Source: a virus
Length of the DNA stretch: 64,000 nucleotides
Strand: one strand, 5' to 3'
IMG/VR virus record: IMGVR_UViG_3300032323_002779
Span: 1 to 64,000 of that record
The notes under the pieces: model-generated
What the model saw: the letters and a program-made list of their open reading frames with translations, nothing else
Told to the model about the DNA's origin: nothing
The model's database searches: none
Shown here: positions 12,363 through 57,531 of the stretch, in pieces
Layout of the letters: each line of letters begins with the position of its first letter
Position numbering within the stretch: the stretch's first letter is position 1
Program-made: the position numbers and the translations under genes

Positions 12363-12914
12363 ATGGAAAATTTAGAAATTTGGAAAGACATATCCGAATA
12401 TGAGGGACGCTATCAAGTATCTAATATTGGTAGAGTAAAGTCTGTTGCAAGAATAGTTGAAAGTAGAAAAGGTGTTTTCGGTAATAAAAAAGAGATTGTT
12501 TTAAAGCCAACTAAAACTAAAAAAGGATATTTAAGAATTAAACTATGTAAAGTTTTTTGCGAAAAATCTATTGAGAATAATTTTTACATACATACTTTAG
12601 TTGCTAAATCATTTTTAGAAAACCCTTTAAAAAAACCTCAAGTTAATCACATTAACGGAGTTAAAGACGATAATAGAATTGAGAATTTGGAGTGGGTTAC
12701 GGGTTCTGAAAATGTAATACATTCTCTTAATAATAATTTAAAAATACCACAGAAAGGTTCTGAACACGGAATGTCAAAACTTACGGAAAAGGAGGTTTTA
12801 GAAATAAGAGCAATAGGGAGGTCAAAAACATTAAAAGAAGTTTCTTTAAAATACAATGTTGACCAATCTTTGATTAGTTCAATCTTGTTAAATAAAATTT
12901 GGAATCACGTTTAA
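12363..12914 (+). CDS. NUMOD4/HNH homing endonuclease
   Basis: EIWKDI...YQVSNIGRVKS (NUMOD4) and VNHINGVKDDNRIENLEWVT (HNH). Confidence 0.92.
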   Translation: MENLEIWKDISEYEGRYQVSNIGRVKSVARIVESRKGVFGNKKEIVLKPTKTKKGYLRIKLCKVFCEKSIENNFYIHTLVAKSFLENPLKKPQVNHINGVKDDNRIENLEWVTGSENVIHSLNNNLKIPQKGSEHGMSKLTEKEVLEIRAIGRSKTLKEVSLKYNVDQSLISSILLNKIWNHV

Positions 12915-12928
12915 AAAAACAATTTAAA

Positions 12929-32735: not shown

Positions 32736-35700
32736 TTTAGAAATACTATGAAGTTATTTAATAAAACAATAGATAGACAATTATTTAGTCAATATTCACT
32801 TGGTAGCGACCTCTCTAAACAAGAGGTTGTTGTCAAGATATTTAATCCTCAAGGCGCAGGGACGTGGTTTATATTAAATTCCGACCCTGAAGACCCTGAT
32901 TACCTTTGGGCTATTGTTGATTTGGGGTATGGTGCTGAAGTTGGTTCGGTTAGCCGTAGTGACCTTGAAAATTATCGTGGTCGATTTGGATTAGGCTTTG
33001 AGCGTGATTTGTCTTTTGACCCTATAAACGCATTAGAACTTTATCAAGGGCTTCTTAATGGAGAATATTATGCTGACGGCGGAAACCTTTCAAGAGATAG
33101 AAAATTCTTGAATCATAGACAGAAATACGAAGTTCGTTATTCAAAGGGTAAAAATCGAAAAGGTTATGGTTATGCTGACGGTGGGGATATTTCAAGCGAA
33201 TTACAAGATTTGTTTTCTAAAATGAAAAACAGTTTAAGTAAAAAAGATTTTGATTCTTTTAATGAATTATCTAATCAAGTTCACGAAATATCTGATTCAA
33301 GGGGATTAAATGAAGAGGAGTACGATTTATGGGATTCTTTAAGAGAAGAAGAAAGAAACTTGCAAATGGAAAATTTTTTAAATAAATCTAAATATGCTGA
33401 CGGTGGCGACATTGAAAGTTTTAGCGATAACCAACGTATGATTATGAATCAAAACGTTGAGGTAGAGCATCATCACGAGGAATTAGAGGATATTTTAGAA
33501 GACGAAGTAGAAGTACCTGCTTGGGTTGTCGCAAAAATGGAAACCGCAACACAAAACCTTTCAGACATTACTCATTACCTTGACGGACAAAAAGAGATAA
33601 TGGAAGACCAATTAGAGGGAGATGATGACGATGATGACGATGATGACGATGATGATGAAATGACGGAAATCGAAAACAAAGAAGTTGTCGAACCAATAAA
33701 TGTTTCTGCGGGAACAAAGGCAGAATTGACTAAAAAGTTTACTGATGATGCTTGGGGGAACTTGAGAGGTTTCTTGAAAGGTATGGAGGGAATTGACCTG
33801 CGTGACGATTATACGTTTGATTACAAGGACGAACAGTTTGAAGTTGAGCCAATCATTAACTCTGATGAAAATGGTGTTTCTAATGCCGTGTTTACGATTT
33901 TTGACGGGGACGGAGAAGAACAAGGAGAGATTAGTTATAGCCGTGAGGGTGGAAAACAAAAGTTTACTGCTAACTCTGATTATTTTGAGTGGAGAAATGC
34001 GAAGTTTGAAGACGGCGGGTATTTTGACGGAACTATCCCGAATGTTTCAACCTATATGAGTACTTATGCTGATGGTGGAGAAATAAATCTTTGGAAGAGC
34101 GAACCAAATAACAAACCTGAAAAATTAAAAACTTTTAAATCATTACGGGCTTTTAATGCGTATATGACTAAAAACGCTAAATCCTTTAGAGATGAACATT
34201 CTAAAAATGGTGCAGGATTTTATGGGTTTGAAGCAGATGCTACTCAACAAGAAGTTGAAAGAAGTTTAGAAAATTTATATACTTCTGAAAATCAATATGC
34301 TGACGGTGGATTTATGGCTAATGTTTACGCAAAAGGCGGAGAAATTGCCAAAGCAGAAATTCTTGGTTTGAGCAAAAACATAATGGGAACTACTGATATT
34401 GAAATGAAAATTTCAGGAATGAGAAAATCTCAAGACTTCATTGTTTACCCAATTAGCAAAGACGATACAGATAAAATTATTACTATTCAATCTTCTACGA
34501 GAATTGGTAAAATTGATTTAAGTTCAGGTCGTGGATTAATGAGCCAAAGCCATTCTAACGGTGCTTACTTTGTGCATTTCCAAATGGACAAACTTACTCC
34601 TTTTATGTTAAGTGAAAGTGATTTACAAGACCTAAAATCTCACATATTTAAAACTGCGGGAGATAATGTAGGTTCGAGAGGTATTGTTTCTGATAATTCA
34701 GGGGCTTCAAGAATATTTGCTGACGGAGGAGAAGTTACGCCAAAATTAAATATGGAAATAACAAAAAGAGCAGAAGAAATTTATGCTAAAAATGGCGGTA
34801 AAACAAAAAAAGACTTTGACATAGCGTATGATAAGGCAATAAAAGAATTTGGCTACGACCCTGAATATTTCAAAAAAGAAATGCGGGAAATTGGTTCAGA
34901 ATATGGGTCTGAAGATGATGATTTTTACGCAAAAGGCGGAGAAGTTTATTCGCACAAACATAGTAAAGGTTGGGGCGAGGACATAACTATTGAGTTGTTA
35001 CAACCTACGGCTAAAGGTTGGAAAGTTAAGCAAACCACTAAAAAAGGAAGAAAAACATCAACCAAAACTGCCTTTTTCAGTAAAGAAGAAATAAGCGAAC
35101 TATTTGAAAAACAATATGCAAAAGGGGGAATTACTTACTACAAAAGCGAAAATGAACGTTTAAGCAGACCTAAAAGCGATATGGAGGAAGAGGTTTTTCA
35201 AAAAGTAAAAAACCAAATCAACCCTGAATTATTTGTTGGGAACTTTGGTTGGAAAACCCCGATGAACAAAACTACTTATGGGTATTTGTATTCGTTGGAC
35301 GACTTCGACAAAGATTATGTGAAAGACGTAAAACTTAAACAGGGAGAGGTAATTTTTAGATACGTCACTCGTATTACGGCTATTGGCGGAATGATGCCTT
35401 TTATTAAGATAAACATTGAAAAAGGGCTTTTGTATTTTCCTGTTTCAAACGATAATGATGATATAATTTTTGAAACAAAAGGCGTGACTCCGTTGTGGAT
35501 AAGTTTAATCGAGGATAGTTTCGCTAAAGGCGGAATTGTTGTTACTTCAATCAAAGATATACCGAATTTTGAGGAAAGGTTGAATCAAGGTAAAATAACT
35601 TATCGTGGATTAGGTTTGGGCAAATTATTTGATGATTTCTATGAATTAACAGGAACAACGGGAACAAGAATAAAAGTTGACGGAAAAGAATACTATATTA

Positions 35701-36182
35701 CCGATGAAGAATTTAAAACTTTCTCAAGAGATGCTGACGGAAAATTGAGAGTCCGTTTTGATGCGCCTTATAGAAAAGGATATGCTAACGGTGGAGGGAT
35801 AGGTTTTATTCCTATGGATTTAGAAGAAACTTTGCGTATTACGGCTAAATGGGGCGGAACTGACATCAAGGGTGTTATTGGTATTTTAAATGCTATGATT
35901 GATTCAGGTTTGACAGACGAAGATTTACAACCAAAACCAACAAAATCGGGTAGCGCATATCAAAACGCACTCGCAAAAAAGACAAAAGAAATTTGGGCTA
36001 AAATTGAGCCGAATTACAAAGGCGACTTCAAAGGCTATATGTATTATAGCACTATTCTTCACTTGGTTGAAAGGTCAACAACTTCTGATAATACTTTGAA
36101 GCGATTTAAACCTTTCAGAAAGTATCAAAAAGATTCTTATGCTGACGGTGGTTTTATGAATGATGTTTATGCTGACGGCGGA
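30705..36182 (+). repeat. Six dispersed 45-bp repeats encoding YADGGFMNDVYA[DK]GG
   Basis: Copies start at about 30705, 31155, 31380, 31974, 34296 and 36138, spread across two genes. Confidence 0.9.
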
Positions 36183-37001
36183 CAAATCAGAGTTGGCGAC
36201 AGATTTAAGTACGATTGGACTGACGGCAGAACAGGTGGTGTGAGAGGTTATGATGTTGTTGAGGTAATAAAAAGCAACGCCACAAGTAGCAGGGACTTCA
36301 AAACTAAAGTTATGGTTTTGAAAGTAATTGAAAGTTCAGACCCAAGCAACGTTGGACGAATAGATGAAGACCTTAAACCAAGTTTCAAAAAAGCAATTAG
36401 ATTAGGTATGATAGTGCCGTTGCAAGAAAGAAGAAGAAAAATGGTTGACGAATTTTACGCTAAAGGAGGAATGTCAAAATTTGAGAAACTTTCTGCTAAA
36501 GTGGCTAAAGAGTACGAGGGTAAACCCGTAAAAAGCGAATATCAAGACGAATACGGTAAAGTTTATTCTAAAGCGGAGGCGCAAGAAGTGGGCGACAAAG
36601 TTGCAGGAAAAGTAAAGGCGATGCAAACTGATAAAAAATCATTTGGAGGCTTTTTTAGCGGGGCGAAAAAGTTGGTAACTCCGAGCAAAAATTACCCTAA
36701 TTTAAGAGGCAAACAGGTTATGCTAAAGTCAGGTAAATATGTTCAGGTTTTTGAACAAATGGACAACAAAATAAGTATTGTAGAGTTGGGCAAAATAGGT
36801 TCAGGCGTAAGACCACATTATATTGACATTTCTGAAGTTGATATGGATTCTTTTAAAGCAGGAGGTAAAATTGCAAGGAAAAGAGTGAACGGCGGAACTG
36901 AAACCCTAAAAAGAGCAAATGAATTGGCTAAAAAAATCCGTAAAGACGGAGAAAGTTGGTTAGACGCTAAAAAAAGAGCGTTTGCGCAATTGAAAAAATA
37001 A
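32748..37001 (+). CDS. 1417-aa GG-motif-segmented protein with N-terminal DUF2958-like module
   Basis: KIFNPQGAGTWF...AEVGSVSRSDLE...FERDLSF; about 16 GG motifs; poly-Asp tract; basic C-terminus. Confidence 0.85.
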   Translation: MKLFNKTIDRQLFSQYSLGSDLSKQEVVVKIFNPQGAGTWFILNSDPEDPDYLWAIVDLGYGAEVGSVSRSDLENYRGRFGLGFERDLSFDPINALELYQGLLNGEYYADGGNLSRDRKFLNHRQKYEVRYSKGKNRKGYGYADGGDISSELQDLFSKMKNSLSKKDFDSFNELSNQVHEISDSRGLNEEEYDLWDSLREEERNLQMENFLNKSKYADGGDIESFSDNQRMIMNQNVEVEHHHEELEDILEDEVEVPAWVVAKMETATQNLSDITHYLDGQKEIMEDQLEGDDDDDDDDDDDDEMTEIENKEVVEPINVSAGTKAELTKKFTDDAWGNLRGFLKGMEGIDLRDDYTFDYKDEQFEVEPIINSDENGVSNAVFTIFDGDGEEQGEISYSREGGKQKFTANSDYFEWRNAKFEDGGYFDGTIPNVSTYMSTYADGGEINLWKSEPNNKPEKLKTFKSLRAFNAYMTKNAKSFRDEHSKNGAGFYGFEADATQQEVERSLENLYTSENQYADGGFMANVYAKGGEIAKAEILGLSKNIMGTTDIEMKISGMRKSQDFIVYPISKDDTDKIITIQSSTRIGKIDLSSGRGLMSQSHSNGAYFVHFQMDKLTPFMLSESDLQDLKSHIFKTAGDNVGSRGIVSDNSGASRIFADGGEVTPKLNMEITKRAEEIYAKNGGKTKKDFDIAYDKAIKEFGYDPEYFKKEMREIGSEYGSEDDDFYAKGGEVYSHKHSKGWGEDITIELLQPTAKGWKVKQTTKKGRKTSTKTAFFSKEEISELFEKQYAKGGITYYKSENERLSRPKSDMEEEVFQKVKNQINPELFVGNFGWKTPMNKTTYGYLYSLDDFDKDYVKDVKLKQGEVIFRYVTRITAIGGMMPFIKINIEKGLLYFPVSNDNDDIIFETKGVTPLWISLIEDSFAKGGIVVTSIKDIPNFEERLNQGKITYRGLGLGKLFDDFYELTGTTGTRIKVDGKEYYITDEEFKTFSRDADGKLRVRFDAPYRKGYANGGGIGFIPMDLEETLRITAKWGGTDIKGVIGILNAMIDSGLTDEDLQPKPTKSGSAYQNALAKKTKEIWAKIEPNYKGDFKGYMYYSTILHLVERSTTSDNTLKRFKPFRKYQKDSYADGGFMNDVYADGGQIRVGDRFKYDWTDGRTGGVRGYDVVEVIKSNATSSRDFKTKVMVLKVIESSDPSNVGRIDEDLKPSFKKAIRLGMIVPLQERRRKMVDEFYAKGGMSKFEKLSAKVAKEYEGKPVKSEYQDEYGKVYSKAEAQEVGDKVAGKVKAMQTDKKSFGGFFSGAKKLVTPSKNYPNLRGKQVMLKSGKYVQVFEQMDNKISIVELGKIGSGVRPHYIDISEVDMDSFKAGGKIARKRVNGGTETLKRANELAKKIRKDGESWLDAKKRAFAQLKK

Positions 37002-39154: not shown

Positions 39155-39286
39155 ATGAAAAAAGAGTATGTTATTGGAGGTTTGGCATTAGTAGGCGTTA
39201 TTGCCTTGTTTGCTTGGTACAGTAAGCCGAAAAAGAACAAAGAGGGGTTTTATAGCGCAAGTGGTTGCGGTTGTGGAGCAAAATAA
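39155..39286 (+). CDS. MKKEY-family membrane peptide (43 aa, not in track)
   Basis: MKKEYVIGGLALVGVIALFAWYSKPKKNKEGFYSASGCGCGAK. Confidence 0.75.
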   Translation: MKKEYVIGGLALVGVIALFAWYSKPKKNKEGFYSASGCGCGAK

Positions 39287-39304: not shown

Positions 39305-39436
39305 ATGAAAAAAGAGTATATCATCGGAGGTTTAGCATTAGTTGGCATTATTGCCTTGTTTGCTTTTTATACAAAACCAAAAAAGAACAAAGACGGGTTT
39401 TATAGCGCAAGTGGTTGCGGTTATGGAGCAAAATAA
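39305..39436 (+). CDS. MKKEY-family membrane peptide, tandem duplicate (43 aa)
   Basis: MKKEYIIGGLALVGIIALFAFYTKPKKNKDGFYSASGCGYGAK. Confidence 0.75.
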   Translation: MKKEYIIGGLALVGIIALFAFYTKPKKNKDGFYSASGCGYGAK

Positions 39437-45777: not shown

Positions 45778-46593
45778 ATGGAGATTAGAGAACCAAAATT
45801 AGGAGTTGCGGTAGGTAGGAAAGGTTGCGGAAAGACCTACACTACTACTAAAATGATTAAACAATACGTTTTAGGAAATCCCTCAAGAGGTGTTCCTGCA
45901 AGACGTGCATTAATTCTTGATGTTAATGATGAATTTGAAGACATTAAAGCATTAAAACAATCGGACATAGTTAGATTTTCGGCGCACCCTAAAATTGAAG
46001 CGAGAAGAATTAGACCGTTTCACGACAACGGTGTTAGAATGACTTTAAGAGAAATACAAGAAGTACTATTTAAAATATTAAACGATTACAGGGGTGGATT
46101 ATTACTTATCGAAGACATTAACCGCTACGTTAGTGACTACTTACCGAATGACCTTGTTGGTGCAATCTGTACTAACAGACACACGGACACAGACATTATT
46201 CTTCACTTTCAGTCCATAGGGCGTATTTCGCCTAAAATTTGGCAGAATTTGAATTGGATTAGATTTCATAAAATCACAGATGATGTAATCAAGCACAGGA
46301 ATAAGTTTGAGGAAAAATTAGAGTTACTGCTATTGGTTGAGGCATACATCAACACACAATACGAAGAGGGCGATAAAAGGGTTTTTACCTACGTTGATAT
46401 TGATGACGAAAAGGTTTTGGTAAAAGACAAGGCGAGGTTTCAAAAAATAATTGAAAACTACCTTATTGCCAATCAAAAGAAATTATTAGTACCTTTAACG
46501 GTTAAAAATCCGCTTATCTCTGCGAAGCCTATGACGCTTGAGGGTGCTTTAAAACACAAAACACAATTGCTTATGAAGCAATATGTCGGATAA
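45778..46593 (+). CDS. Stand-alone FtsK-HerA/A32-like P-loop ATPase, probable genome-packaging ATPase
   Basis: GRKGCGKT near the N-terminus, LLLIED Walker B, TNRH arginine finger and ILHFQ; 271 aa with no nuclease domain. Confidence 0.75.
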   Translation: MEIREPKLGVAVGRKGCGKTYTTTKMIKQYVLGNPSRGVPARRALILDVNDEFEDIKALKQSDIVRFSAHPKIEARRIRPFHDNGVRMTLREIQEVLFKILNDYRGGLLLIEDINRYVSDYLPNDLVGAICTNRHTDTDIILHFQSIGRISPKIWQNLNWIRFHKITDDVIKHRNKFEEKLELLLLVEAYINTQYEEGDKRVFTYVDIDDEKVLVKDKARFQKIIENYLIANQKKLLVPLTVKNPLISAKPMTLEGALKHKTQLLMKQYVG

Positions 46594-48932: not shown

Positions 48933-49634
48933 ATGTCAAACGTAAGAAGATATTTAAGCAACGCACGTCAGAGTGCAATGGAATCTTTCTCAAATGCTGA
49001 CGGATTCATCGACCAAGACTTGTCTTTCACAGGCGATGATTTCTTCCGTGCAGATGGAGGAATGTCTATGGGTGGAGATATTCAAACATCTCAACCGTAT
49101 ATTATCAACGTGACTTCTACTTCAGGGTCAGCAGTTGCTAATTTTGACGTATTAGGTTCATACCAATACATCAACAACGCAGGTTTCCAAACAAACGGAA
49201 ACTTGATTATCGGTTCTGTAACTATTAGTTCAGGAATCCCTAACATTACATACCAAGAGATGTTGTATCAGTTTATGAACAACCCGTATTCTGTTGGTTT
49301 AACTTACATTCAATCTGCTACTGCTAACCAAGTGTTACAAACATTGGCGGTTAACACACGAGATGCGAATGGTAACTTGGCGCAAAAGACTTTAGTGCCT
49401 ACAATCGACCCATATCAGCAACAAACTACAATTATTGCGATGAAGTATGCTTACAGAATTGATGGTTTCACAAAAATCACAATTGCTCAAGTGTTAGCAA
49501 ATGCTACTGTATCGTTATACTTCTATCCTGCTGATAACATCAACCTTGCGAGAGCATTAGGTGGACAACCTGTAAGCAGACAATTCGGTACGCCTCCTGT
49601 AACTAATGGTCAAACCATTAAGTTAAGAGCGTAA
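48933..49634 (+). CDS. Candidate major capsid protein (beta-rich, possibly single jelly-roll)
   Basis: Soluble, rich in T/S/N/Q/I/V strands, frequent AAC/ATC/TTC/TAC codons suggesting high expression, own terminator, close to the ATPase. Fold not verified. Confidence 0.55.
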   Translation: MSNVRRYLSNARQSAMESFSNADGFIDQDLSFTGDDFFRADGGMSMGGDIQTSQPYIINVTSTSGSAVANFDVLGSYQYINNAGFQTNGNLIIGSVTISSGIPNITYQEMLYQFMNNPYSVGLTYIQSATANQVLQTLAVNTRDANGNLAQKTLVPTIDPYQQQTTIIAMKYAYRIDGFTKITIAQVLANATVSLYFYPADNINLARALGGQPVSRQFGTPPVTNGQTIKLRA

Positions 49635-49676
49635 TTATCAGCAATGATATAACGAATTAATGTATAATTTAGAAAG

Positions 49677-49710
49677 AGAGCAAGTGATTCATTTCTACTT
49701 GCTCTTTTTT
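49677..49710 (+). terminator. Intrinsic terminator after the candidate capsid gene
   Basis: AGAGCAAGT...ACTTGCTCT followed by a T-run. Confidence 0.8.
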
Positions 49711-49728
49711 GCTTAAAAACAAAAAATT

Positions 49729-50157
49729 ATGAACGTATTCAGATATGTTGCAGAGTCTAATCCAAATGGCGCAGTACAGATAATCAATTCTTTCGGTTAT
49801 GATGTTACAAGCACCTCTGATTTAGGTAAAAGTTTGAGTGAGTTAGTAGCCGAAGTAGGAGAACCTGCTTTCAAAAAGGTTATGGACAACCACCCTGACA
49901 AAGATGTTATTTTAGAATTATACGGAAGCGATATTACCAAAGATAAAGAAGAGAAAACTTGCGGTTGCGACTTTTGTCGAAATAGGTATAGAGCCGTAGA
50001 GCATTTACAGTATCTTAACGCCACAGGTAGTGGTACTTTCGCAGACGAAAAACCAAGTGGTTCTAACACAAATACACATTTATTGGCTAACCAAACAAAC
50101 GTTATTTTAGTCGTTTCTGCTTTGTTCATAGCAACTGCATTAATCTTAAAAAAATAA
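49729..50157 (+). CDS. C-anchored putative virion membrane protein
   Basis: CGCDFC, YLNATG and a C-terminal TM followed by KK. Confidence 0.7.
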   Translation: MNVFRYVAESNPNGAVQIINSFGYDVTSTSDLGKSLSELVAEVGEPAFKKVMDNHPDKDVILELYGSDITKDKEEKTCGCDFCRNRYRAVEHLQYLNATGSGTFADEKPSGSNTNTHLLANQTNVILVVSALFIATALILKK

Positions 50158-50162
50158 AAAAA

Positions 50163-50882
50163 ATGGCAAAAACAGTCAAACCAACGATTGAAACGGGAGC
50201 AATGACTTTAGTCTTGCTTGTTAAGTATTACAAAAGCCAAATGATTGCTTTATTGTTGAAGAATGGAGTTACTGTACCAAGAGGGGCTTCTGACCAACAA
50301 ATCGCAATGCTTATGGCTAATTTATTAAAAGTGTCAAAATCATTTTTTGTTGATTTGAACAATTTTATTCAAAATCCAAAAGTTATTGAAACTCTTGCGG
50401 GAGGAATGACGCAAACCGCCGAATACTTTAAAATGAGTGGAAACGCTCAATATTTTAGAATGAGTGGAAATGCTCAATATTTTAAAATGAGCGGAAAGGG
50501 CTATATGAATAGCACAGGCGGAGAAGACGGTTTTACAGACACAGGAGAACCTGCACCGTCAGGAACGCCAATAAAAGATAAAGAGGGTTTTTGGTCAAAC
50601 CTTAATTTCGGAAATTTATTTTCTCAAGCATTAGGTGCTTTTGGACAGTTTAACACTAACCAAGCCAACGTTGCTATTGCTAATGCTCACGCACAATCAC
50701 AACAAGCAGGTTCAGACGTAGGTTCAGGTGGAGTCACAGGTGGAGGCGCAGGTGGAAGCACAAGTTCAGGGAAAAAAACTCCTGAAAAGGGAATGTCAAC
50801 AACTACAATTGTAGTATTGAGTTTGTTGGGTGTTGCCGTAATAGGAACAATTATCTACTTCGTAGCAAAACCTAAAGAATAA
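50163..50882 (+). CDS. C-anchored putative virion membrane protein
   Basis: Three YF[KR]MSG repeats, YMNSTGG, a Gly-rich linker and a C-terminal TM. Confidence 0.7.
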   Translation: MAKTVKPTIETGAMTLVLLVKYYKSQMIALLLKNGVTVPRGASDQQIAMLMANLLKVSKSFFVDLNNFIQNPKVIETLAGGMTQTAEYFKMSGNAQYFRMSGNAQYFKMSGKGYMNSTGGEDGFTDTGEPAPSGTPIKDKEGFWSNLNFGNLFSQALGAFGQFNTNQANVAIANAHAQSQQAGSDVGSGGVTGGGAGGSTSSGKKTPEKGMSTTTIVVLSLLGVAVIGTIIYFVAKPKE

Positions 50883-50894
50883 AAACAAACAGTT

Positions 50895-51122
50895 ATGGTT
50901 ATTGATGAACAAATGTTGTCAAAAATAATTGGGTCTTCTGTTGGAATGTACCCAAATGATGTAGCGGATATGCTTGTTCGTAATAACGTACTTGCACCCG
51001 CACCTGATTACACGCTAAACCAATTGGTAGAGGGTGTTTTTGTTGGTTTAAATCAAAACCCAAGTTTTACTCAAGAGTATGGTTCTTGGTTAGAGCAAAT
51101 CGTAACTACATTAACTTTTTAA
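50895..51122 (+). CDS. Small helical protein
   Basis: Resembles the N-terminal domain of the two preceding genes. Confidence 0.65.
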   Translation: MVIDEQMLSKIIGSSVGMYPNDVADMLVRNNVLAPAPDYTLNQLVEGVFVGLNQNPSFTQEYGSWLEQIVTTLTF

Positions 51123-51132
51123 ATATATAGAT

Positions 51133-51441
51133 ATGGCTTGGGATTGGGGAGGAATAGTTAAGTCGATAGCACCTGCTCTTGTAGGTTTTGGGACAAGTAT
51201 GATTGTCAATAATCAAAACGTCAAAAACGCACAAGGTCAAGCAAACGCAACTCAAAATGCACTTAATCAGCAATATCAAATTGCTTTGCAAAATCAGCAA
51301 AACATAAAATTGATGCAACAGGCAGGTCAAGCACCTCCTGAAAAAGAAAAAAGCAATTTACCTCTTTACATAGGTTTAGGTGTTGGCGGAGTAGTATTAC
51401 TTGGAGTTGTAATATTTGCGGTCACACGGAGGTCTAATTAA
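51133..51441 (+). CDS. Q/N-rich C-anchored membrane protein
   Basis: C-terminal TM. Confidence 0.7.
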   Translation: MAWDWGGIVKSIAPALVGFGTSMIVNNQNVKNAQGQANATQNALNQQYQIALQNQQNIKLMQQAGQAPPEKEKSNLPLYIGLGVGGVVLLGVVIFAVTRRSN

Positions 51442-51454
51442 TTAAACATCTATT

Positions 51455-51670
51455 ATGCAAAATTTTATAGCGGAAGCAAAGGCAATTGCGAGTAAAGACA
51501 AAAGAGAAGTTCTTATGGTAACTACAAGAGCATCAGTTAATGGTGCGGTTACGGGACTTGTTTTAGGTCTTATGCTTGGATATTGGAAAAACAAAAACGT
51601 TTATGTAACGGGTCTTGTGGGTGCTATTATTGGTGGCGTTGCTACAAGCATTATAGTTAACAAAAAATAA
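51455..51670 (+). CDS. Small two-TM glycine-zipper protein
   Basis: GxxxG-rich helices. Confidence 0.7.
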   Translation: MQNFIAEAKAIASKDKREVLMVTTRASVNGAVTGLVLGLMLGYWKNKNVYVTGLVGAIIGGVATSIIVNKK

Positions 51671-51677
51671 ATCAAAA

Positions 51678-51788
51678 ATGAAAAAACCAAATATTTTAAT
51701 GGCGGTAGTAGGATTAGTAGTTTCTATTGGAGTTATTTATGGCTACACATACGTTATAGGAAAGTCTTGGAAAGCAAGTCAAAAATAA
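51678..51788 (+). CDS. 36-aa membrane peptide (not in track)
   Basis: MKKPNILMAVVGLVVSIGVIYGYTYVIGKSWKASQK; similar to 52827. Confidence 0.65.
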   Translation: MKKPNILMAVVGLVVSIGVIYGYTYVIGKSWKASQK

Positions 51789-51807
51789 TCTAACTTTTTA
51801 AATCAAA

Positions 51808-52230
51808 ATGAAAAAAGAGTATATCATCGGAGGTTTAGCACTATTAGGCGTTATTGGGGTTATTTCTTATTTGAGAAAACCAAAGAGAAATTCAGAGGGC
51901 TTTTATAATGCGGTAGGAACAAAAACGGCAGGAAATATTCGACCGTTCCCGACAAAACAAGAGGTTTGTAATTTGCCTAATAATTTTGTTAGACAAGTAG
52001 TTACTAATAACAATGGCGTGACTAAAACTTTTTGTGGTAGATACGATAGGGTTGTAACTATGACTCCAACAGGTAAAGGGTTTCAATATAGATTACGACC
52101 TGAAATTCCAAATGCAACTTTTGTGAATGGTGGTTTTGTAAATTCAAACGGAACAAGTATTGTTACAACATTTCAAATAATTAGTGGTTCTGATTATGAA
52201 TCCGCATTTATAAATGGACAATACTGTTAA
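51808..52230 (+). CDS. MKKEY-family membrane protein
   Basis: Conserved N-terminus to EGFYNAVG, then a unique tail. Confidence 0.75.
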   Translation: MKKEYIIGGLALLGVIGVISYLRKPKRNSEGFYNAVGTKTAGNIRPFPTKQEVCNLPNNFVRQVVTNNNGVTKTFCGRYDRVVTMTPTGKGFQYRLRPEIPNATFVNGGFVNSNGTSIVTTFQIISGSDYESAFINGQYC

Positions 52231-52257
52231 AAAACATTAATCAATAAATCAAAAAAA

Positions 52258-52518
52258 ATGAAGAAAGAGTATATCATCGGAGGTTTAGCACTATTAGGCG
52301 TTATTGGGGTTGTTTCTTATTTGAGAAAACCAAAGAGAAATTCAGAGGGTTTTTTCGGAGCGTCAGGTAGAGGCAGTTCGATAAGAAGAGTTTCAAGTCA
52401 AAATTGCGCTTGGTGCAAAACGAATGACGGAACTATTTATCACACAGGAGGCGACAGAAATTGTAGCGCAGGAGATAGATGTATCACAAGATACGCTTTT
52501 TCTAAAGGCATTAATTAA
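52258..52518 (+). CDS. MKKEY-family membrane protein with a four-Cys tail
   Basis: Conserved N-terminus to EGFFGASG, then CAWC...C...GDRC. Confidence 0.75.
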   Translation: MKKEYIIGGLALLGVIGVVSYLRKPKRNSEGFFGASGRGSSIRRVSSQNCAWCKTNDGTIYHTGGDRNCSAGDRCITRYAFSKGIN

Positions 52519-52536
52519 TCATTAAAATCAAATAAA

Positions 52537-52782
52537 ATGAAAAAAGAGTATATCATCGGAGGTTTAGCCTTGTTAGGCATTATTGGGGTTGTTTCTTATT
52601 TAAGAAAACCAAAAAGAAATTCAGAGGGCTTCTTTGGAGCAAGTGGAAGAACGAGTACAGGAGGTTGTAGAGTTTGTGAGGGCGGAAGCAGTAATTATTT
52701 TGCCGTTTATGGTCAATGCAGACGAGGCGACAGATGTTTACAAACTGTAAAACAGTTTACTCAAGCGCAAAGTATGGATTAA
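52537..52782 (+). CDS. MKKEY-family membrane protein with a four-Cys tail
   Basis: Conserved N-terminus to EGFFGASG, then CRVC...C...GDRC. Confidence 0.75.
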   Translation: MKKEYIIGGLALLGIIGVVSYLRKPKRNSEGFFGASGRTSTGGCRVCEGGSSNYFAVYGQCRRGDRCLQTVKQFTQAQSMD

Positions 52783-52826
52783 GAACTTTTGTTAAAAAAA
52801 ACATTAATAAAATAAAATTTAAGAAT

Positions 52827-52961
52827 ATGGACAATTTTTATGACAATCAAAAAAAGGCGAGTACAACAGATAAATTGATTTACATTGGGGTATCAGCGGT
52901 AGTTGTATTTGGATTGGTTTATCTTGTAGGTCGTGCTTGGAAAAAAAGTCAAACTGCATAA
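52827..52961 (+). CDS. Small membrane peptide
   Basis: Likely start ATG 52827 (MDNFYDN...); TM followed by GRAWKKSQ. Confidence 0.65.
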   Translation: MDNFYDNQKKASTTDKLIYIGVSAVVVFGLVYLVGRAWKKSQTA

Positions 52962-52967
52962 TTAATT

Positions 52968-53375
52968 ATGGTTTCTGTTCCGCACCCTAAATATAAATTT
53001 AAGGAGGATTTTACTGCGAAGTTATGTACTAACTACATAGAGTCTTACACCACTAAAACACCTTGTAAATCTTACGAGGATTTAGTGTTTAAAAAGGGGA
53101 ATGTTTTTGAGGCGGTAAAAAACATCAATATAACTGACCCAAATGTAATTGTTGGGTTGGCTAAAATGACACCTTTTCAAGTCCCTTTAAATGTTTTAGA
53201 AAAAGTTGACGATTCAACACCAATTACAGACATTATTCAAGGCGACCCTTTGGTTAACAAAGCGAAAAAACAAGCGGAAACAGATGCGGAAGAAAAAAAA
53301 GTAAAAATGATGTTTATTGTACCTACAATCGCTATATTAGCAATTGTTTGGATATACGGCATTAAAAAACTTTAA
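52968..53375 (+). CDS. SH3-like C-anchored membrane protein
   Basis: KYKFKEDF...FKKGNVF...VPLNVLEKVDDSTP plus TM. Confidence 0.65.
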   Translation: MVSVPHPKYKFKEDFTAKLCTNYIESYTTKTPCKSYEDLVFKKGNVFEAVKNINITDPNVIVGLAKMTPFQVPLNVLEKVDDSTPITDIIQGDPLVNKAKKQAETDAEEKKVKMMFIVPTIAILAIVWIYGIKKL

Positions 53376-53378
53376 ATT

Positions 53379-53555
53379 ATGCAAAAAGTTATAAAAGTAG
53401 GAGCGTTATTAGTAGTATCTACGGGTATTATTTACGCCTCTTACATTATGTACGATAACTATGTTAAGAAGCATAAAAAGCCACAAGAGGTTCAACCTTT
53501 ATTTTCAGGAGGTACAATGGGTAACATTGGTTGCATACAACCTCCCTGTTTTTAA
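53379..53555 (+). CDS. 58-aa membrane peptide (not in track)
   Basis: MQKVIKVGALLVVSTGIIYASY...LFSGGTMGNIGCIQPPCF. Confidence 0.65.
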   Translation: MQKVIKVGALLVVSTGIIYASYIMYDNYVKKHKKPQEVQPLFSGGTMGNIGCIQPPCF

Positions 53556-53569
53556 GAAAAAAAATTATT

Positions 53570-53872
53570 ATGAGTAAAAATACAATGCTTTACGGATTAT
53601 TGATTGCAGGGGGTTTACTTGCTTACTTCGCTTGGAAAAAAAAGAGCGCAGAATCGGCAAAATCTTCTGAAACCGCATCTAATTCTACTTCAGGGACTTT
53701 TGTAGATGACGTTCCTGTTTCACAAGAAGTTGCTAATGAGTTGTTGCAGGGTACAGGCGGTATTAGACCTCCAAAAACCATAAAAAACACGTTAAGTCAA
53801 ATTGCCGAGCCTTTAATCGGGACAAAGCAACAAGTGGAATTATCAGGCAAGGGTCAATTCCTTGAATCATAA
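53570..53872 (+). CDS. N-anchored membrane protein
   Basis: Likely start MSKNTML; TM followed by KKK. Confidence 0.7.
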   Translation: MSKNTMLYGLLIAGGLLAYFAWKKKSAESAKSSETASNSTSGTFVDDVPVSQEVANELLQGTGGIRPPKTIKNTLSQIAEPLIGTKQQVELSGKGQFLES

Positions 53873-53884
53873 AAACGAAACCTT

Positions 53885-54031
53885 ATGGAAACTAAAAAAA
53901 TCATAGGAATAGTAATGTTAGGTGCTTCTGTGGGGCTATTAGTTTTTCTCTACAAGGGCTATTTACAACCAAGAATAGAAGTTGATAACGAGGCAAAAGA
54001 CGGTAAGACTTCTCCAACAACAACAAAATAA
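53885..54031 (+). CDS. 48-aa membrane peptide (not in track)
   Basis: METKKIIGIVMLGASVGLLVFLYK... Confidence 0.65.
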   Translation: METKKIIGIVMLGASVGLLVFLYKGYLQPRIEVDNEAKDGKTSPTTTK

Positions 54032-54037
54032 CAAGAT

Positions 54038-54370
54038 ATGGAAGCAGAAAAGAAAAGTCCTAATAAACTTTGGAGAGAAAGTGGAACTTCATTAAGTTTT
54101 GCTGATTGGATTCAAAGAGAAAAAGACAAAGGTGCTTTTTTAGCCAATAAAAAATTCGAGAACTTCGCAAGTGTTGAGGGAGGAATCGACTATATGGATT
54201 GGATTGAAAAAATTAAGGCGCAAAACAGACTTGATTTAGGGATTGATAAGGTTATTGACCCAAACAAAAAAGACAATACGTTTTTAGGTTTAAGCAAACC
54301 TGTATTGATTGTGTCGGGGTTATTGATACTTGGGGCAATAGGGTATAAGATTTATCAAAATAGAAAGTAG
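54038..54370 (+). CDS. C-anchored membrane protein
   Basis: LWRESGTSLSFADWIQREK, FENFASVEGG and a C-terminal TM. Confidence 0.7.
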   Translation: MEAEKKSPNKLWRESGTSLSFADWIQREKDKGAFLANKKFENFASVEGGIDYMDWIEKIKAQNRLDLGIDKVIDPNKKDNTFLGLSKPVLIVSGLLILGAIGYKIYQNRK

Positions 54371-54371
54371 T

Positions 54372-55157
54372 ATGAATTTAAGGTTAGATACACGATACGA
54401 AGAAATGTGCTTGGTGGTAAAAGTAGCAGTTACAATGCCTACTAAAGTCAGAATTAGAATTTTTGACGAGCAAAAGCCGAAAATCGTTTTTACCGACAGA
54501 TATAAAACCGTTACTTCTGACTACACTTTTTATGTTCGTATGCCAATTACTTCCAAAAGCATTATAGTTTCTGTTTACGATGATAAAAAAGGGAATACGC
54601 CTCAAGAACAAGAAAAAAACGTAAGGGTGGTTTCGGTTGACAAAACTCCTTTACAAAAAAGAATTGACGTAGTTGATATTCACAATCCGACCATAGCGTA
54701 TTTCGTTGATTTTGCGCAAAGATTTTGTTTTAATGCACCTTATCTACAAGCAAACAAGTCTTATCAGTCAGATAACGGAAATTTTATGATTGAGTACTTG
54801 CCAACGATAGTGGATTCAAGAGGAAAGGAACTTACAACACCTGCGAGAATATCAAGAATTTCAGGTCGTATTCAAGTTTCAAAGAAACAGTTTGACGAAT
54901 ACACAGTACCAATGAGATTTGCCATTCTTTGTCACGAGTTCGCTCATTTCTACGTTAACGAAGATATGACCGATGAAAGTGAGGCTGACATAAATGGATT
55001 GTTGATTTATTTAGGGCTTGGTTATCCAAGAATCGAAGCGTTTGAAGCGTTTTTAGAAGTTTTTGAGCATTACCCAAGTCAAGAGAACAAAAGACGTTAC
55101 GATAAGATTAAAAATTTTATCGACAACTTTGAAAAAAACAATATTGTATTTAGATAA
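54372..55157 (+). CDS. Zincin-like metallopeptidase
   Basis: HEFAH with downstream ESEAD. Confidence 0.7.
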   Translation: MNLRLDTRYEEMCLVVKVAVTMPTKVRIRIFDEQKPKIVFTDRYKTVTSDYTFYVRMPITSKSIIVSVYDDKKGNTPQEQEKNVRVVSVDKTPLQKRIDVVDIHNPTIAYFVDFAQRFCFNAPYLQANKSYQSDNGNFMIEYLPTIVDSRGKELTTPARISRISGRIQVSKKQFDEYTVPMRFAILCHEFAHFYVNEDMTDESEADINGLLIYLGLGYPRIEAFEAFLEVFEHYPSQENKRRYDKIKNFIDNFEKNNIVFR

Positions 55158-55168
55158 AATTTACAGTT

Positions 55169-56116
55169 ATGGAAAAAGACCAATCAATGATAAGACCAAT
55201 TAAAGGAGGTGTTTCAGTTATAAATGAGAATCCGATAGGTGTTCTTGAGAAATTAGGTAAGTATGAATTTGTTTATGATTACAAAGTGCCTAATTATTGG
55301 GATAATTTAATGTCGGTGTCTTTTCCGAAACCTGTAAAGGTAAATTCAGACCCGCAAAGTGGACTTTTGTCGGGAGAATCTCTCCCGCAACCTGTTAAAA
55401 TAAATTCAGAGGCGCAAGTTGGTTTTTTCTCAAAGGGTAATATTGTAAATGTTCTTCGTTTTGACGGAAACAATGCTATTATCGAAAACATTAATTATAA
55501 AGCCCCTGACCCAACTGTCGTAAAGACTGTTTGGGGAGAATTATTAGGGAGTGTCTTAAATAAAAAAGAATTTTCTGTTCCTAAAGATTATTTAAGAAAG
55601 GCAGACGATACTTTAGAGCCAACGCTTTTAACAGGAATTAATTATGGGACTAATATGAAGCAACCAACTTTCATTATGCCTCCTGTAAAACCAATTCCTT
55701 ATAGCCCTGTAACCCAAACTATTCTTGAAGAAAACGCAAGTTTTGTTTTAAATAGAGATTTTCAGTACGTTTCACATTATGGTTCAAGTTATTGTAGTCC
55801 TGACGGATTGTGTACTACGGATATGTCGCCTAAATTTTCTACTCTTAAAGCAGGAACTAAAGTAACAGGTCGCTTATTTAGCGAAAGCCAAACATTCAAG
55901 ACATCTATGGTTATAGTTGAGCCAAAACAATTTCTTGCCGTTAAAGGTTATGGAGATAAAGGCTCAATTAATATTCCAATAGAATTTTTAACAAAAGAAG
56001 TTCCAACAAATAGCGGTGCGGTTGTTCCCGCAAAAAATGACAACAAAAATCTGTTGATGATAGTAGGTGCTTTTTTAGTAGGCTACGTTGTATTCAGCAA
56101 AGGAAAGAGCGAATAA
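55169..56116 (+). CDS. C-anchored membrane protein with two SH3-like domains
   Basis: YEFVYDY...FSKGNIV...VPKDYL and LNRDF...LKAGTKV...IPIEFL, plus a TM. Confidence 0.65.
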   Translation: MEKDQSMIRPIKGGVSVINENPIGVLEKLGKYEFVYDYKVPNYWDNLMSVSFPKPVKVNSDPQSGLLSGESLPQPVKINSEAQVGFFSKGNIVNVLRFDGNNAIIENINYKAPDPTVVKTVWGELLGSVLNKKEFSVPKDYLRKADDTLEPTLLTGINYGTNMKQPTFIMPPVKPIPYSPVTQTILEENASFVLNRDFQYVSHYGSSYCSPDGLCTTDMSPKFSTLKAGTKVTGRLFSESQTFKTSMVIVEPKQFLAVKGYGDKGSINIPIEFLTKEVPTNSGAVVPAKNDNKNLLMIVGAFLVGYVVFSKGKSE

Positions 56117-56131
56117 TTAAAAAAGGAAGTT

Positions 56132-56806
56132 ATGGCACTTGCAAAAAAACAACTAATAAATACCCAATTTCTAACTCCTATGCAGGAAATAGAAGTTTTG
56201 GAAATACAACCAATTGTAAAAGAAAAACCGTTGGGTAAATTTGTTTTTTTATTCGATTACGAAACAACAATCTATACTAACGAGGCAAAGACAATAATGG
56301 CTCAATCTAAAGGTAATTTTATTTTGCCTCCCAATTCATCATTTAATTTAAGATACTCAAAAGGAGATGTTGTTGATGTTGTTGGGTTAGGGGTTAATAG
56401 CAATGGAATCGGAAGCACGATAAATAGTGATTTAAAAATTATTGATGTTCCTAAATTTGTAAAACCGTTGTGTACGAGTTTAACACCTTATACGGAAACT
56501 TGTCCAACGCCCCAATCATATTCGCCAACAATAACAATTGACAATAGTTTAGGGTTTTTACAAAAAGTAGCCGATTCAACACCTGCGACATTAAAATTAG
56601 GCAAAAACTTTGGAAGTAACCCAAATCCTAAAATCCAACCTGTAATGCCTATTCAAACAGATATAAAAACAGACGCTCCTGTTGTAGTCTATGGTGTTCA
56701 AAATGCAACAGAAACAGAAAGTTTTTTTGACGATAAAAATAATTTACTAATGGTAGCGGGTATTCTTTTAATTGGGTACTTGTTACTGAACGATAAAAGC
56801 GAATAA
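56132..56806 (+). CDS. C-anchored SH3-like membrane protein, paralog of 55169
   Basis: LGKFVFLFDY...YSKGDVV...KVADSTP; NNLLMVAG TM. Confidence 0.65.
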   Translation: MALAKKQLINTQFLTPMQEIEVLEIQPIVKEKPLGKFVFLFDYETTIYTNEAKTIMAQSKGNFILPPNSSFNLRYSKGDVVDVVGLGVNSNGIGSTINSDLKIIDVPKFVKPLCTSLTPYTETCPTPQSYSPTITIDNSLGFLQKVADSTPATLKLGKNFGSNPNPKIQPVMPIQTDIKTDAPVVVYGVQNATETESFFDDKNNLLMVAGILLIGYLLLNDKSE

Positions 56807-56808
56807 TT

Positions 56809-57531
56809 ATGGCTAATAAACCTATTAATGTAAATAAAGCGATGACCGTTGTTTACTTCAATAATCTAATTCTTGGAGAATTAAGAAAAAACGGGATTGA
56901 AAGTTGGATTGCGGGTGGTGTTTTAAGGGATTACTTCTTGGATAAGCCCTTAAAATCTGATTGCGATATTTTCTTTCCTAACATTGAAGAGTTCAACAAA
57001 GCAAAAGCATATTTAACGTCAAAAGGAGCAAAAATAATTTGGGAAAGTGAAAACGGAATGAAAGTTACCTACAAGGGCAATACTTTTGATTTAGTTAAAA
57101 TCTTTGCGCCAAATCCTTTGGCTACTATTGGTCGTTTTGATTTTACGATTTCAATGTTGGCTACTGACGGAAAACAAGTTTTTTACGGAAATAATACCCT
57201 AAAAGACTTACAAGATAGAAAATTGGTAATCAATACTATTGTGAATCCATTAAGCACTCTTAAAAGAGTATTGAAGCACTATAAGAAAGGGTTCACTATG
57301 TCTGCGGAGGAAACCAAAAAACTATATGAGGCTTTAAATAGTATGCCTTATAACGATACTGACGATATGCTCAATGCAAGAGGGGTTTCAGGGGATAATT
57401 TTAGACCAACGGTTGTGGCAACGCAACCTGCGCCTGTGGCTAAACCTGATTATTTGAAGTACGCTATGATTGGCGTACTTGCGCTTTTGGTTGGGTATGT
57501 TGCTTATAAAAAATTTAATAAACCACAGTAA
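56809..57531 (+). CDS. CCA-adding/poly(A)-polymerase-type nucleotidyltransferase head with C-terminal TM anchor
   Basis: IAGGVLRD, SDCDIF, RFDFTI, DLQDRKL and LKRVLKHYKKGF, followed by a hydrophobic helix. Confidence 0.8.
   Translation: MANKPINVNKAMTVVYFNNLILGELRKNGIESWIAGGVLRDYFLDKPLKSDCDIFFPNIEEFNKAKAYLTSKGAKIIWESENGMKVTYKGNTFDLVKIFAPNPLATIGRFDFTISMLATDGKQVFYGNNTLKDLQDRKLVINTIVNPLSTLKRVLKHYKKGFTMSAEETKKLYEALNSMPYNDTDDMLNARGVSGDNFRPTVVATQPAPVAKPDYLKYAMIGVLALLVGYVAYKKFNKPQ

Follow-up and report, generated by a model that had tools for sequence, protein, structure and literature searches.

Why does the same short peptide recur on the candidate coat protein and on a set of unrelated small membrane proteins of one virus, and what would read it? 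This question is raised by the 8.6-kb region from position 48933 to position 57531 of the virus record IMGVR_UViG_3300032323_002779, which is 73,240 bp long and whose first 64 kb (64,000 nucleotides, nt) form the stretch analysed here, hereafter called the window. An earlier inspection of the letters alone, referred to below as the sequence-only reading, had noticed peptides related to [FYM]-x-x-A-x-G in this region, had connected them with a motif of giant polyproteins encoded elsewhere in the genome, and had proposed that they represent one genome-wide maturation signal or, alternatively, a shared capsid-binding peptide. Every peptide that it listed was found where it had been placed, and our data support the view that the coat candidate and unrelated small membrane proteins share one conserved signal, carried on flexible segments. 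A single partner, whether it docks or cuts, probably reads this motif. We tentatively favour, at somewhat less than even confidence, the view that the motif is a short linear docking signal, that is, an assembly address read by one common partner, for which trimming would be optional.

The coat (capsid) candidate is a protein of 233 amino acids (aa) encoded at 48933..49634 on the + strand, the strand that also carries all the motif-bearing genes, the peptidase, the ATPase and the giant genes whose coordinates are given below. It appears to consist of an N-terminal arm (aa 1-50, nt 48933-49082) and a single jelly-roll core (aa 51-233). The layout proposed by the sequence-only reading, namely an extension of about 50 aa in front of a beta-rich core, agrees with the AlphaFold2 model (mean predicted local distance difference test, pLDDT, of 87), in which a helix spans aa 3-20, a low-confidence segment aa 21-50 and the beta-rich core aa 51-233. 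The first motif copy, FSNADG (aa 19-24, nt 48987..49004), directly follows the N-terminal helix, while the second, FFRADGG (aa 37-43, nt 49041..49061), falls within a segment of pLDDT below 50; judging from the model, the segments that bear the motif are presumably flexible. Conservation of both copies was assessed on orthologues collected by BLAST from 37 IMG/VR loci with 10-kb flanks, counting distinct sequences only and using the regular expression of the sequence-only reading widened by W, plus a looser, post hoc expression. The first copy was present in 30 of 30 orthologues with a column identity of 0.92, and the second in 30 of 30 as FF-x-A-x-G, the x positions being variable.

As far as the identity of this protein is concerned, we found 2017 relatives in a large protein collection, forming 565 representative clusters at E <=0.001. 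Profile scans with Pfam, PHROG and NCBIfam assigned it to no named family (NCBIfam gave nothing for the four core proteins), and the ESM Atlas returned nothing for the coat protein (best score 0.80). Structural comparison with VIA gave moderate Z scores of 5-6 against the jelly rolls of PR772, FLiP, phiCjT23, PM2 and Faustovirus, and equally against non-viral beta-sandwiches; Foldseek matches were weak. Taken together with the model, it is a reasonable inference that the 233-aa protein is the capsid protein.

In order to express the recurrence of the motif quantitatively, we compared the genome with shuffled versions of itself, using 101 + strand open reading frames (ORFs; 22,760 aa) and 2000 per-protein shuffles. 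The original expression, [FYM]..A.G, which had been fixed before any relative was seen, matched 22 times against a mean of 11.2, a value reached by 7 of the 2000 shuffles. This expression was not the strongest signal: the tripeptide ADG occurred 35 times against 6.0 expected and ADGG 23 times against 0.49, and neither count was reached in any of the 2000 shuffles. The enrichment that the sequence-only reading proposed to test is borne out, and much more clearly so in independent coat arms. Specifically, the best 150 of the 565 representative clusters were sampled; 114 of them were kept (205-275 aa, initial M), 36 being dropped as fragments or fusions, and in 95 of the 114 the start of the core was found by a simple pattern, the other 19 being dropped. 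In these 95 distant arms, shuffled 1000 times within each arm so as to preserve its own composition, [FYM]..A.G matched 70 times against 8.2, and a refined expression written post hoc, [FYW].[NSG][AVMFI].G, matched 74 times against 4.0 and in 55 of the 95 arms; in both cases no shuffle reached the observed count. The same peptide emerged when no prior pattern was imposed: among the 3-mers of the arms ADG showed the highest enrichment (52, with 4.9 expected), and among the 4-mers NADG (18, with 0.5 expected).

The arms of these relatives measure 22-93 residues and carry a net negative charge in 68 of 95 cases. The first motif starts at aa 16-22, after a conserved N-terminal helix, in 42 of the 63 arms (of 95) in which a motif was matched for this purpose, and the last motif lies 5-45 residues from the core. 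The arms contain 143 A-x-G sites. Position -3 is occupied by F, Y or W at 75 of them, and L or F is the usual residue at -2. At -1 there are 70 sites with N or S and 22 with Y or F. Between A and G, D stands at 52 sites and N at 23; the x positions are free to vary, and past the G no single residue prevails. The best consensus is aromatic-x-[N/S/G]-[A/V/M]-x-G, with NADG as the commonest core.

Some coat relatives lack an acidic arm altogether, and we considered them as possible cases of motif loss. This was rejected, as they are a second jelly-roll paralogue, and among the coat relatives without the acidic arm we found no genome lacking both motif and peptidase. The second paralogue occurs in some relatives (L060:10001-10654 and L059:605-1267), is about 40% identical to the coat core and has a basic, hydrophobic N-terminus with no acidic motif-bearing arm. 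In locus L060 the ATPase gene follows it immediately, and the contig of L020 and L060 shows that it co-occurs with an arm-bearing coat gene and the peptidase in one genome. A different arrangement was seen in genome G003, which carries two tandem arm-bearing coat genes.

Outside the coat gene, the motif was found in small proteins with a single predicted membrane anchor. Two of them, anchored at their C-terminus, are encoded just downstream of the coat gene. The first (49729..50157, 142 aa) carries YLNATG at aa 95-100 (nt 50011-50028), 18 aa before the membrane segment. The motif is present in 30 of 31 orthologues, and the column identity is 0.71 within it against 0.08 in the flanking 40 columns. 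The second (50163..50882, 239 aa) carries a tandem array of four copies at aa 88-120 (nt 50424-50522), namely YFKMSG, YFRMSG, YFKMSG and YMNSTGG, the first three at a period of 9 residues; 17 of 19 orthologues retain at least one copy, within a linker that cannot be aligned elsewhere. As with the coat sites, the conservation expected by the sequence-only reading was therefore found in both proteins.

A further group is anchored at the N-terminus. It includes a 140-aa protein (51808..52230) in which RKPKRNSEG-FYNAVG, with the motif at aa 32-37 (nt 51901-51918), precedes a C-terminal domain, as well as two paralogues with a Cys-rich tail, of 86 aa (52258..52518) and 81 aa (52537..52782), both carrying FFGASG at aa 32-37 (nt 52351-52368 and 52630-52647, respectively). 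The motif was found in 9 of 9, 11 of 11 and 9 of 10 orthologues of these three proteins. To the same group belong two minimal 43-aa proteins encoded in tandem, which fall below the ORF length threshold of 45 aa used here. The one at 39155..39286 has no payload domain and consists of an anchor, KPKKNKEG-FYSASG (motif at nt 39248-39265) and 6 residues more; the other (39305..39436) is again an anchor plus FYSASG (nt 39398-39415). A common module, MKKEY..(membrane segment)..KPK.N..GF-motif, is found in all five N-anchored carriers, which indicates that they are paralogues. In the list of carriers drawn up by the sequence-only reading, they therefore count as one origin.

Two more C-terminally anchored proteins complete the set. 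The 240-aa protein encoded at 56809..57531 is a nucleotidyltransferase (phrog_4400, E 4.4e-18; phrog_1614, E 8.5e-11) with MLNARG at aa 187-192 (nt 57367-57384), between the enzyme domain and the anchor; the form [ML]L[NS]A[RN]G was conserved in 4 of 4 orthologues, all of which are close relatives (71-76% identity). It is apparently an enzyme addressed to the virion membrane. The 110-aa protein at 54038..54370 is a weak member, in that its FASVEGG (nt 54164-54184) has a motif-like counterpart in only 7 of 28 orthologues and the segment is deleted in several; it is the weakest case in the motif set of the sequence-only reading. Two matches inspected outside the structural blocks, FYNADG in the gene 1327-2004 and YQRADG in the gene 4896-5603, show no sign of being the same signal, although motif conservation was not checked for either, the former lying in a protein with no membrane anchor and with one homologue among five relatives, the latter in a protein with only a weak homologue. 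In the small membrane proteins, 9-35 residues separate the anchor from the motif. As judged from these alignments, the motif is a conserved island within variable linkers of unrelated proteins.

We then considered whether any common reader is needed, since a favoured local turn (Asn/Asp-Gly), or a mere by-product of paralogy and of linkers rich in A, N, D and G, might also leave such a pattern. Five of the carriers are indeed paralogues, the arms are rich in these four residues and the 54038 site is poorly kept. In addition, an unrelated protein of 686 aa encoded outside the window (genome 69343-71403) contains short repeats ending in ...[AV]-x-G-G and yields six false matches to the motif expression. 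(This repeat protein is possibly a fibre or spike; its versions in relatives are larger and rich in STIGGG and CNTAS words.) However, shuffling within each arm, which preserves composition, still leaves 74 matches against 4.0, and in the 49729 linker the motif is the sole conserved island, with the identities of 0.71 and 0.08 given above. Moreover, the motif recurs in the neighbours of the coat gene in each of six whole genomes examined. When the source genome was compared with five further family genomes (G001-G005), many matches to the refined expression fell in the coat gene and in the adjoining small genes of all six. Its total was 20 against 9.9 in the source genome and about twice that of the shuffles in G001, G003 and G004 (reached by 0, 3 and 1 of 300 shuffles, respectively); in G002 and G005 it was not above the shuffles (76 and 43 of 300). 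We therefore regard the absence of any common reader as very improbable.

If the motif is read, the next question is whether it is bound or cut. The smallest carriers bear directly on this point. Besides the two 43-aa ORFs of the source genome, nine minimal ORFs of 41-48 aa were found in 8 of the 37 related loci. They comprise at least three sequence types, each present in several genomes, and share the order anchor, basic stretch and motif, ending 1-11 residues past the motif. Their codon differences, counted as synonymous to non-synonymous, were 8:2, 3:1 and 6:6, the last value referring to 39155 versus 39305, where the non-synonymous changes are conservative. Because the differences are mainly synonymous or conservative, we take these ORFs as real genes. 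If cut, such proteins would release almost nothing, which argues against the release of a payload as the main purpose of the motif.

The tandem copies point in the same direction. In addition to the array of the 50163 protein, the arms of some coat relatives contain three or four W-x-x-A-D units at a period of 7 residues, with the G sometimes absent. We argue that arrays with a period of 7-9 residues would be typical of avidity-driven binding and wasteful as cleavage sites. The placement of the motif in the coat arms, with its start close behind the helix, its variable distance from the core and the lack of a fixed residue past the G, is a third argument of this kind. All together, a shared binding peptide would suit the minimal proteins and the tandem arrays better than a release of domains from their anchors, which was the function first put forward for the motif.

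On this docking hypothesis, the anchored copies would display the peptide at the membrane face where the coat lattice assembles. The displayed peptide would couple the membrane to the coat and would select the membrane proteins that enter the virion, including the tail-anchored nucleotidyltransferase. The proteins of 41-48 aa would then be minimal tethers, and tandem copies would raise avidity. On the coat arm, the peptide might mediate contacts between subunits, or might keep the protein's own binding site occupied until it arrives at the membrane. The candidates for the partner would be the coat core and a zinc peptidase that carries a beta-sandwich domain. Trimming after docking would be possible, as with the T4 capsid-targeting sequence, but the data do not require it.

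The zinc peptidase is also the basis of the strongest competing explanation, namely that the motif is a maturation-protease site, at or beside which this enzyme would cut, removing the arm of the coat protein as a propeptide and clipping the membrane proteins, much as adenovirus protease processes its precursors. The candidate, which could be either reader or protease, is a 261-aa protein encoded at 54372..55157. It contains HEFAH at aa 188-192 (nt 54933-54947) and E-x-E-A-D downstream, and the residues H188, E189, H192, E202 and E204 are invariant in 21 peptidase sequences (51-95% identity). The arrangement of HExxH with a downstream Glu ligand that characterises M48 peptidases is thus present. 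The AlphaFold2 model (mean pLDDT 90.5) shows an N-terminal beta-sandwich (aa 1-96) followed by an alpha/beta, zincin-like domain. For aa 106-256, the closest VIA match was E. coli BepA (Z 8.8, root-mean-square deviation 4.2, 120 aligned residues), a match around the limit of 8-9 below which the tool's own note speaks of moderate similarity, followed by 3c37 (Z 7.1), ZMPSTE24 (Z 6.4) and Ste24p (Z 6.2). M48 enzymes act on membrane-proximal segments.

The distribution of the gene also speaks for the protease hypothesis. All 25 loci that extend for at least 7 kb downstream of the coat gene contain it, 2.5-7.4 kb downstream of that gene, and it is found in 30 of the 37 loci overall, the other seven being cut short or lacking a called coat ORF. 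In the source genome it is the sole zincin-like HExxH ORF; another HExxH string, in the gene 18599-19945, has no zincin context (this gene encodes a 448-aa protein with a long Gly-Gln repeat of 25 overlapping GQGQ words). Furthermore, the position of the motif, between domains and anchors and within a propeptide-like N-terminal arm, is in favour of a processing site. The fold and the invariant residues thus support the idea of an M48-like zincin as a putative maturation protease.

At the level of sequence families, the same protein gave little. It did not match PF01435 (Peptidase_M48) at E values up to 1, while the control search gave matches in 13 of 14 genomes; the Pfam scan returned only a SprT-like hit (E 0.043), Foldseek no match at E <=0.001, and a PDB search with the peptidase profile nothing usable. 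The leads from the ESM Atlas scored below 0.9, with DUF4344 at 0.84 and a cluster in which 25% of the members are M48 at 0.82. Besides this missing family match, the cleavage hypothesis has to face the minimal proteins, which have nothing to free, the tandem sites only 7-9 residues apart, and the absence of a conserved residue past the G, which leaves no clear signature of a scissile bond; cleavage itself is a prediction. We consider that the motif could be such a protease site, a possibility to be taken seriously but to which we give roughly a one-third weight in our judgement.

Several points likewise weigh against docking. A zinc peptidase is present in every complete block, which suits cutting at least as naturally as binding, and so conserved an enzyme needs a role. 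The same peptide on the coat arm would compete with the membrane proteins for one site. No motif was seen in the three anchored proteins inspected for it within the block, those encoded at 55169, 56132 and 57534, and therefore the motif is not a general entry ticket to the particle. The topology of the membrane proteins is deduced only from the pattern of charges and the lack of signal peptides, the coat identity of the 233-aa protein is itself an inference, the refined expressions were composed after inspection of the data, and the docking partner is at candidate level, its binding being a proposal. As a separate observation, the three proteins lacking the motif (55169-56116, 56132-56806 and 57534-58055) have beta-rich domains followed by C-terminal anchors that resemble one another (...NLLM[IV].G.. 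or ...TVMIIGAF..), and may be paralogues.

Three other functions were examined and set aside. An N-glycosylation sequon would suit some copies (N-A-T/S) and is ruled out by NADG; a covalent Asp/Asn isopeptide tag is ruled out by the finding that D or N stands between A and G in only 75 of the 143 arm sites; and an RTX-like calcium motif does not fit.

The second part of the question concerns the giant polyproteins, to which the sequence-only reading had linked the structural motif. The left half of the genome encodes three giant ORFs of 1897 aa (12899..18592), 2781 aa (24390..32735) and 1417 aa (32748..37001), with polyvalent-protein domains: DUF5661 (E 3.7e-9) and ART-PolyVal (28.3 bits, short of the 31.2 required by the cut-off) in the first, and DUF2958 (E 3.3e-15) in the third. 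Just upstream of the first giant lie a stand-alone 330-aa ORF with an ART-PolyVal domain (11367-12359, E 4.5e-22) and a stand-alone zeta-toxin-like kinase (9517-10464, E 3.7e-25).

Of the 23 ADGG sites in the genome, 22 lie in the three giants and a single one in the coat arm, and in all 22 giant sites the A immediately follows F, Y or M. These sites bear on the idea of one genome-wide signal, in which the structural motif and the polyprotein [FY]ADGG would be the same peptide read by the same partner, an idea that overlaps with both the docking and the protease hypotheses. In its favour, A-D-G follows an aromatic residue in both settings in the source genome, the one exact ADGG outside the giants is in the coat arm, the polyprotein register [FYW]A[DN]G is itself enriched in the distant coat arms (12 against 1.4), and at 22 of their 143 A-x-G sites the A is immediately preceded by Y or F. 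However, the two motifs differ in register: the residue before the A at position -1 is F, Y or M in 22 of 22 giant sites, whereas in the structural proteins the aromatic residue is at -3, with N or S at -1. Accordingly, [FYM]..A.G fits only 2 of the 22 giant sites.

When the giants were examined on their own, a different expression, [FYML]-x-[DKNE]-G-G, described their sites. In the four ORFs of at least 600 aa of the source genome it occurred 48 times against 3.0 in shuffles, and all 48 copies fall within the three giants, spaced from 10 to about 600 residues apart. The 1897-aa protein carries 6 of these junction motifs, 3 of them FADGG; the 2781-aa protein carries 27, of which 11 are [FYM]ADGG, some forming tandem pairs such as YADGGFMNNVYADGG; and the 1417-aa protein carries 15, of which 8 are [FY]ADGG, the first just after DUF2958 (aa 26-99). 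The enrichment in large proteins held in all six genomes (0 of 500 shuffles reached the observed count in five of them, and 10 of 500 in G005), but it did not extend to proteins below 600 aa (7 against 4.3 in the source genome) or to the coat arms (5 against 2.1, a count attained in 69 of 1000 shuffles).

The comparison of relatives is equally telling. Their giants carry FEKGG or YEKGG (G001), MAKGG (G004), FAKGG (G005) and MADGG or YAKGG (G002), while in G001, G004 and G005 the coat protein and the membrane proteins retain F-x-N-A-x-G. At one site with nearly identical flanks, apparently orthologous across four genomes, the source has GGGVSF-ADGG-DIP, G001 GGGVSF-EKGG-DIP, G005 GGGVSF-AKGG-DIP and G002 GGGVAF-ADGG. 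These swaps show that at this site the hydrophobic residue and the GG are kept, and not the A-D. We conclude that the structural and giant motifs would be two signals that share A-D-G in the source lineage, and that [FYML]-x-[DKNE]-G-G may serve the giants as a junction or cleavage signal distinct from the structural motif. The link drawn by the sequence-only reading thus survives as far as the shared A-D-G and the enrichment of [FYW]A[DN]G in the arms are concerned, but not as an identity, given the different register, the poor fit and the separate GG signal. One signal for both classes of proteins is, in our opinion, unlikely, and a common reader of the two is possible but not indicated.

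A more elaborate scheme keeps both signals and joins them through a single enzyme. In this two-letter peptide code, a six-residue address would sort the coat, the tethers and the anchored enzymes, [FYML]-x-[DKNE]-G-G would punctuate the approximately 6,100 residues of injected effector polyproteins, and one M48-like zincin would read both. We regard this as a speculative proposal with a small chance of being correct.

The remaining features of the genome place the motif in a recognisable setting. The record is rated complete by CheckV, has a GC content of about 35%, and carries 101 of its 108 ORFs, as obtained by simple longest-ORF calling, on the + strand. Between 38 and 58 kb we found two SLT transglycosylases, a PAP2 phosphatase, a P-loop NTPase, the coat candidate, the 261-aa HExxH protein and small single-anchor proteins, at least 12 of the latter being encoded between 49.7 and 58 kb. 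The P-loop NTPase (45778..46593, 271 aa), encoded upstream of the coat gene, is a candidate packaging ATPase; 36 of the 37 loci have it as a neighbour of the coat gene. Its family signals are weak (phrog_2666, E 2.7e-5; HerA, E 0.046, and ClpB, E 0.021, at the level of the Walker A motif only), and a single-sequence search of the PDB returned nothing. The lipid phosphatase of the PAP2 superfamily (43070-43714, E 1.5e-13) is found just upstream of the ATPase and coat genes in 33 of 37 loci. Searches of the genome for an HK97-type capsid, portal or large terminase (PF05065, PF04860 and PF03354) returned nothing, the controls for all three being positive. Like viruses of the PRD1 and sphaerolipovirus type, this virus thus shows none of these three proteins and many small membrane proteins, and it appears to form a tailless, membrane-containing particle. 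Two further observations concern the genome at large. Two PAS domains (E 2.5e-23) occur in a 368-aa protein encoded outside the window (genome 65097-66203), a sensor-type protein that is unusual in a viral genome, and the relative G005 (72.5 kb, 83% coat identity) has a 123-bp inverted terminal repeat, not seen in the source record, which suggests a linear genome and terminal-protein replication.

Shared sorting or processing peptides are known in adenovirus, T4 and encapsulins. The protease AVP cuts at (M/I/L)-x-G-G|x or (M/I/L)-x-G-x|G, pS273R of African swine fever virus at GG-X, and the poxvirus I7L enzyme (Peptidase_C57) at A-G|X. As in these systems, one short peptide is found here in several unrelated proteins assigned to the virion of a jelly-roll-type virus, a G-G signal occurs in giant polyproteins, and the morphogenesis block includes a peptidase gene of the virus. 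In contrast, the candidate enzyme is an M48-like zincin and not a clan CE cysteine protease such as AVP, and the structural motif has a single G, as A-x-G, rather than A-G-X or x-G-G. Neither the structural nor the polyprotein motif conforms to the AVP consensus, the hydrophobic residue of the polyprotein signal being one place further from the GG. In the 73-kb genome there was no match to PF00770 (Peptidase_C5), whose control was silent in all 14 genomes, to PF03290 (I7L peptidase) or PF03420 (S77, T4-type prohead protease), whose controls were silent too, or to PF04586 (S78, HK97-type prohead protease), whose control gave matches in 4 genomes. With respect to M48 proteins (BepA/YfgC, Ste24/ZMPSTE24), the 54372-55157 protein has HExxH with a downstream Glu and its best structural matches among them, and differs in lacking a PF01435 match and membrane segments and in its added N-terminal beta-sandwich.

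The favoured docking signal has its closest parallels in the capsid-targeting sequence of T4, which is cut off by gp21 in the course of processing, and in the cargo-loading peptides that direct cargo to the encapsulin shell. As in those cases, proteins that are otherwise unrelated would be brought to the growing shell by a short peptide that they carry. Unlike the peptides of those systems, this one is internal and near the membrane rather than terminal, the coat protein carries it too, it forms tandem arrays, and the particle appears to be tailless and membrane-containing, with a partner at candidate level.

For the polyvalent proteins of phages and conjugative elements, processing by zincin-like metallopeptidases has been proposed (Iyer et al. 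2017, PMC5512222). The giants described here resemble them in carrying ART-PolyVal, DUF5661 and DUF2958, and depart from the proteins of that account, as given in its passages on processing, in that no peptidase domain was detected inside them, the only zincin being the separate 261-aa protein of the structural block. The same passages do not mention a junction peptide of the type [FYML]-x-[DKNE]-G-G.

The 8.6-kb region and the coat protein had no match in the phage collection searched, and the literature searched, supplementary files apart, yielded no description of the motif or of the virus group. The assembly of bacterial tailless membrane-containing viruses is known from a few small cultured phages. 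To our knowledge, neither a maturation protease nor a shared sorting or processing peptide has been described for any of them.

In conclusion, our data point to one six-residue signal conserved across a family of at least 565 sequence clusters, and cleanly separate this structural signal from a second one that punctuates the giant effector proteins. As the motif would mark the proteins of the particle, it would allow virion proteins to be listed from sequence in an uncultured group, and it offers a concrete peptide-and-partner pair for the bench. If the zincin does read the motif, this would represent a new kind of virion maturation system; and if the two-letter code read by the zincin were true, the enzyme would be the first such protease in these viruses, a functional analogue of AVP built on a different enzyme.

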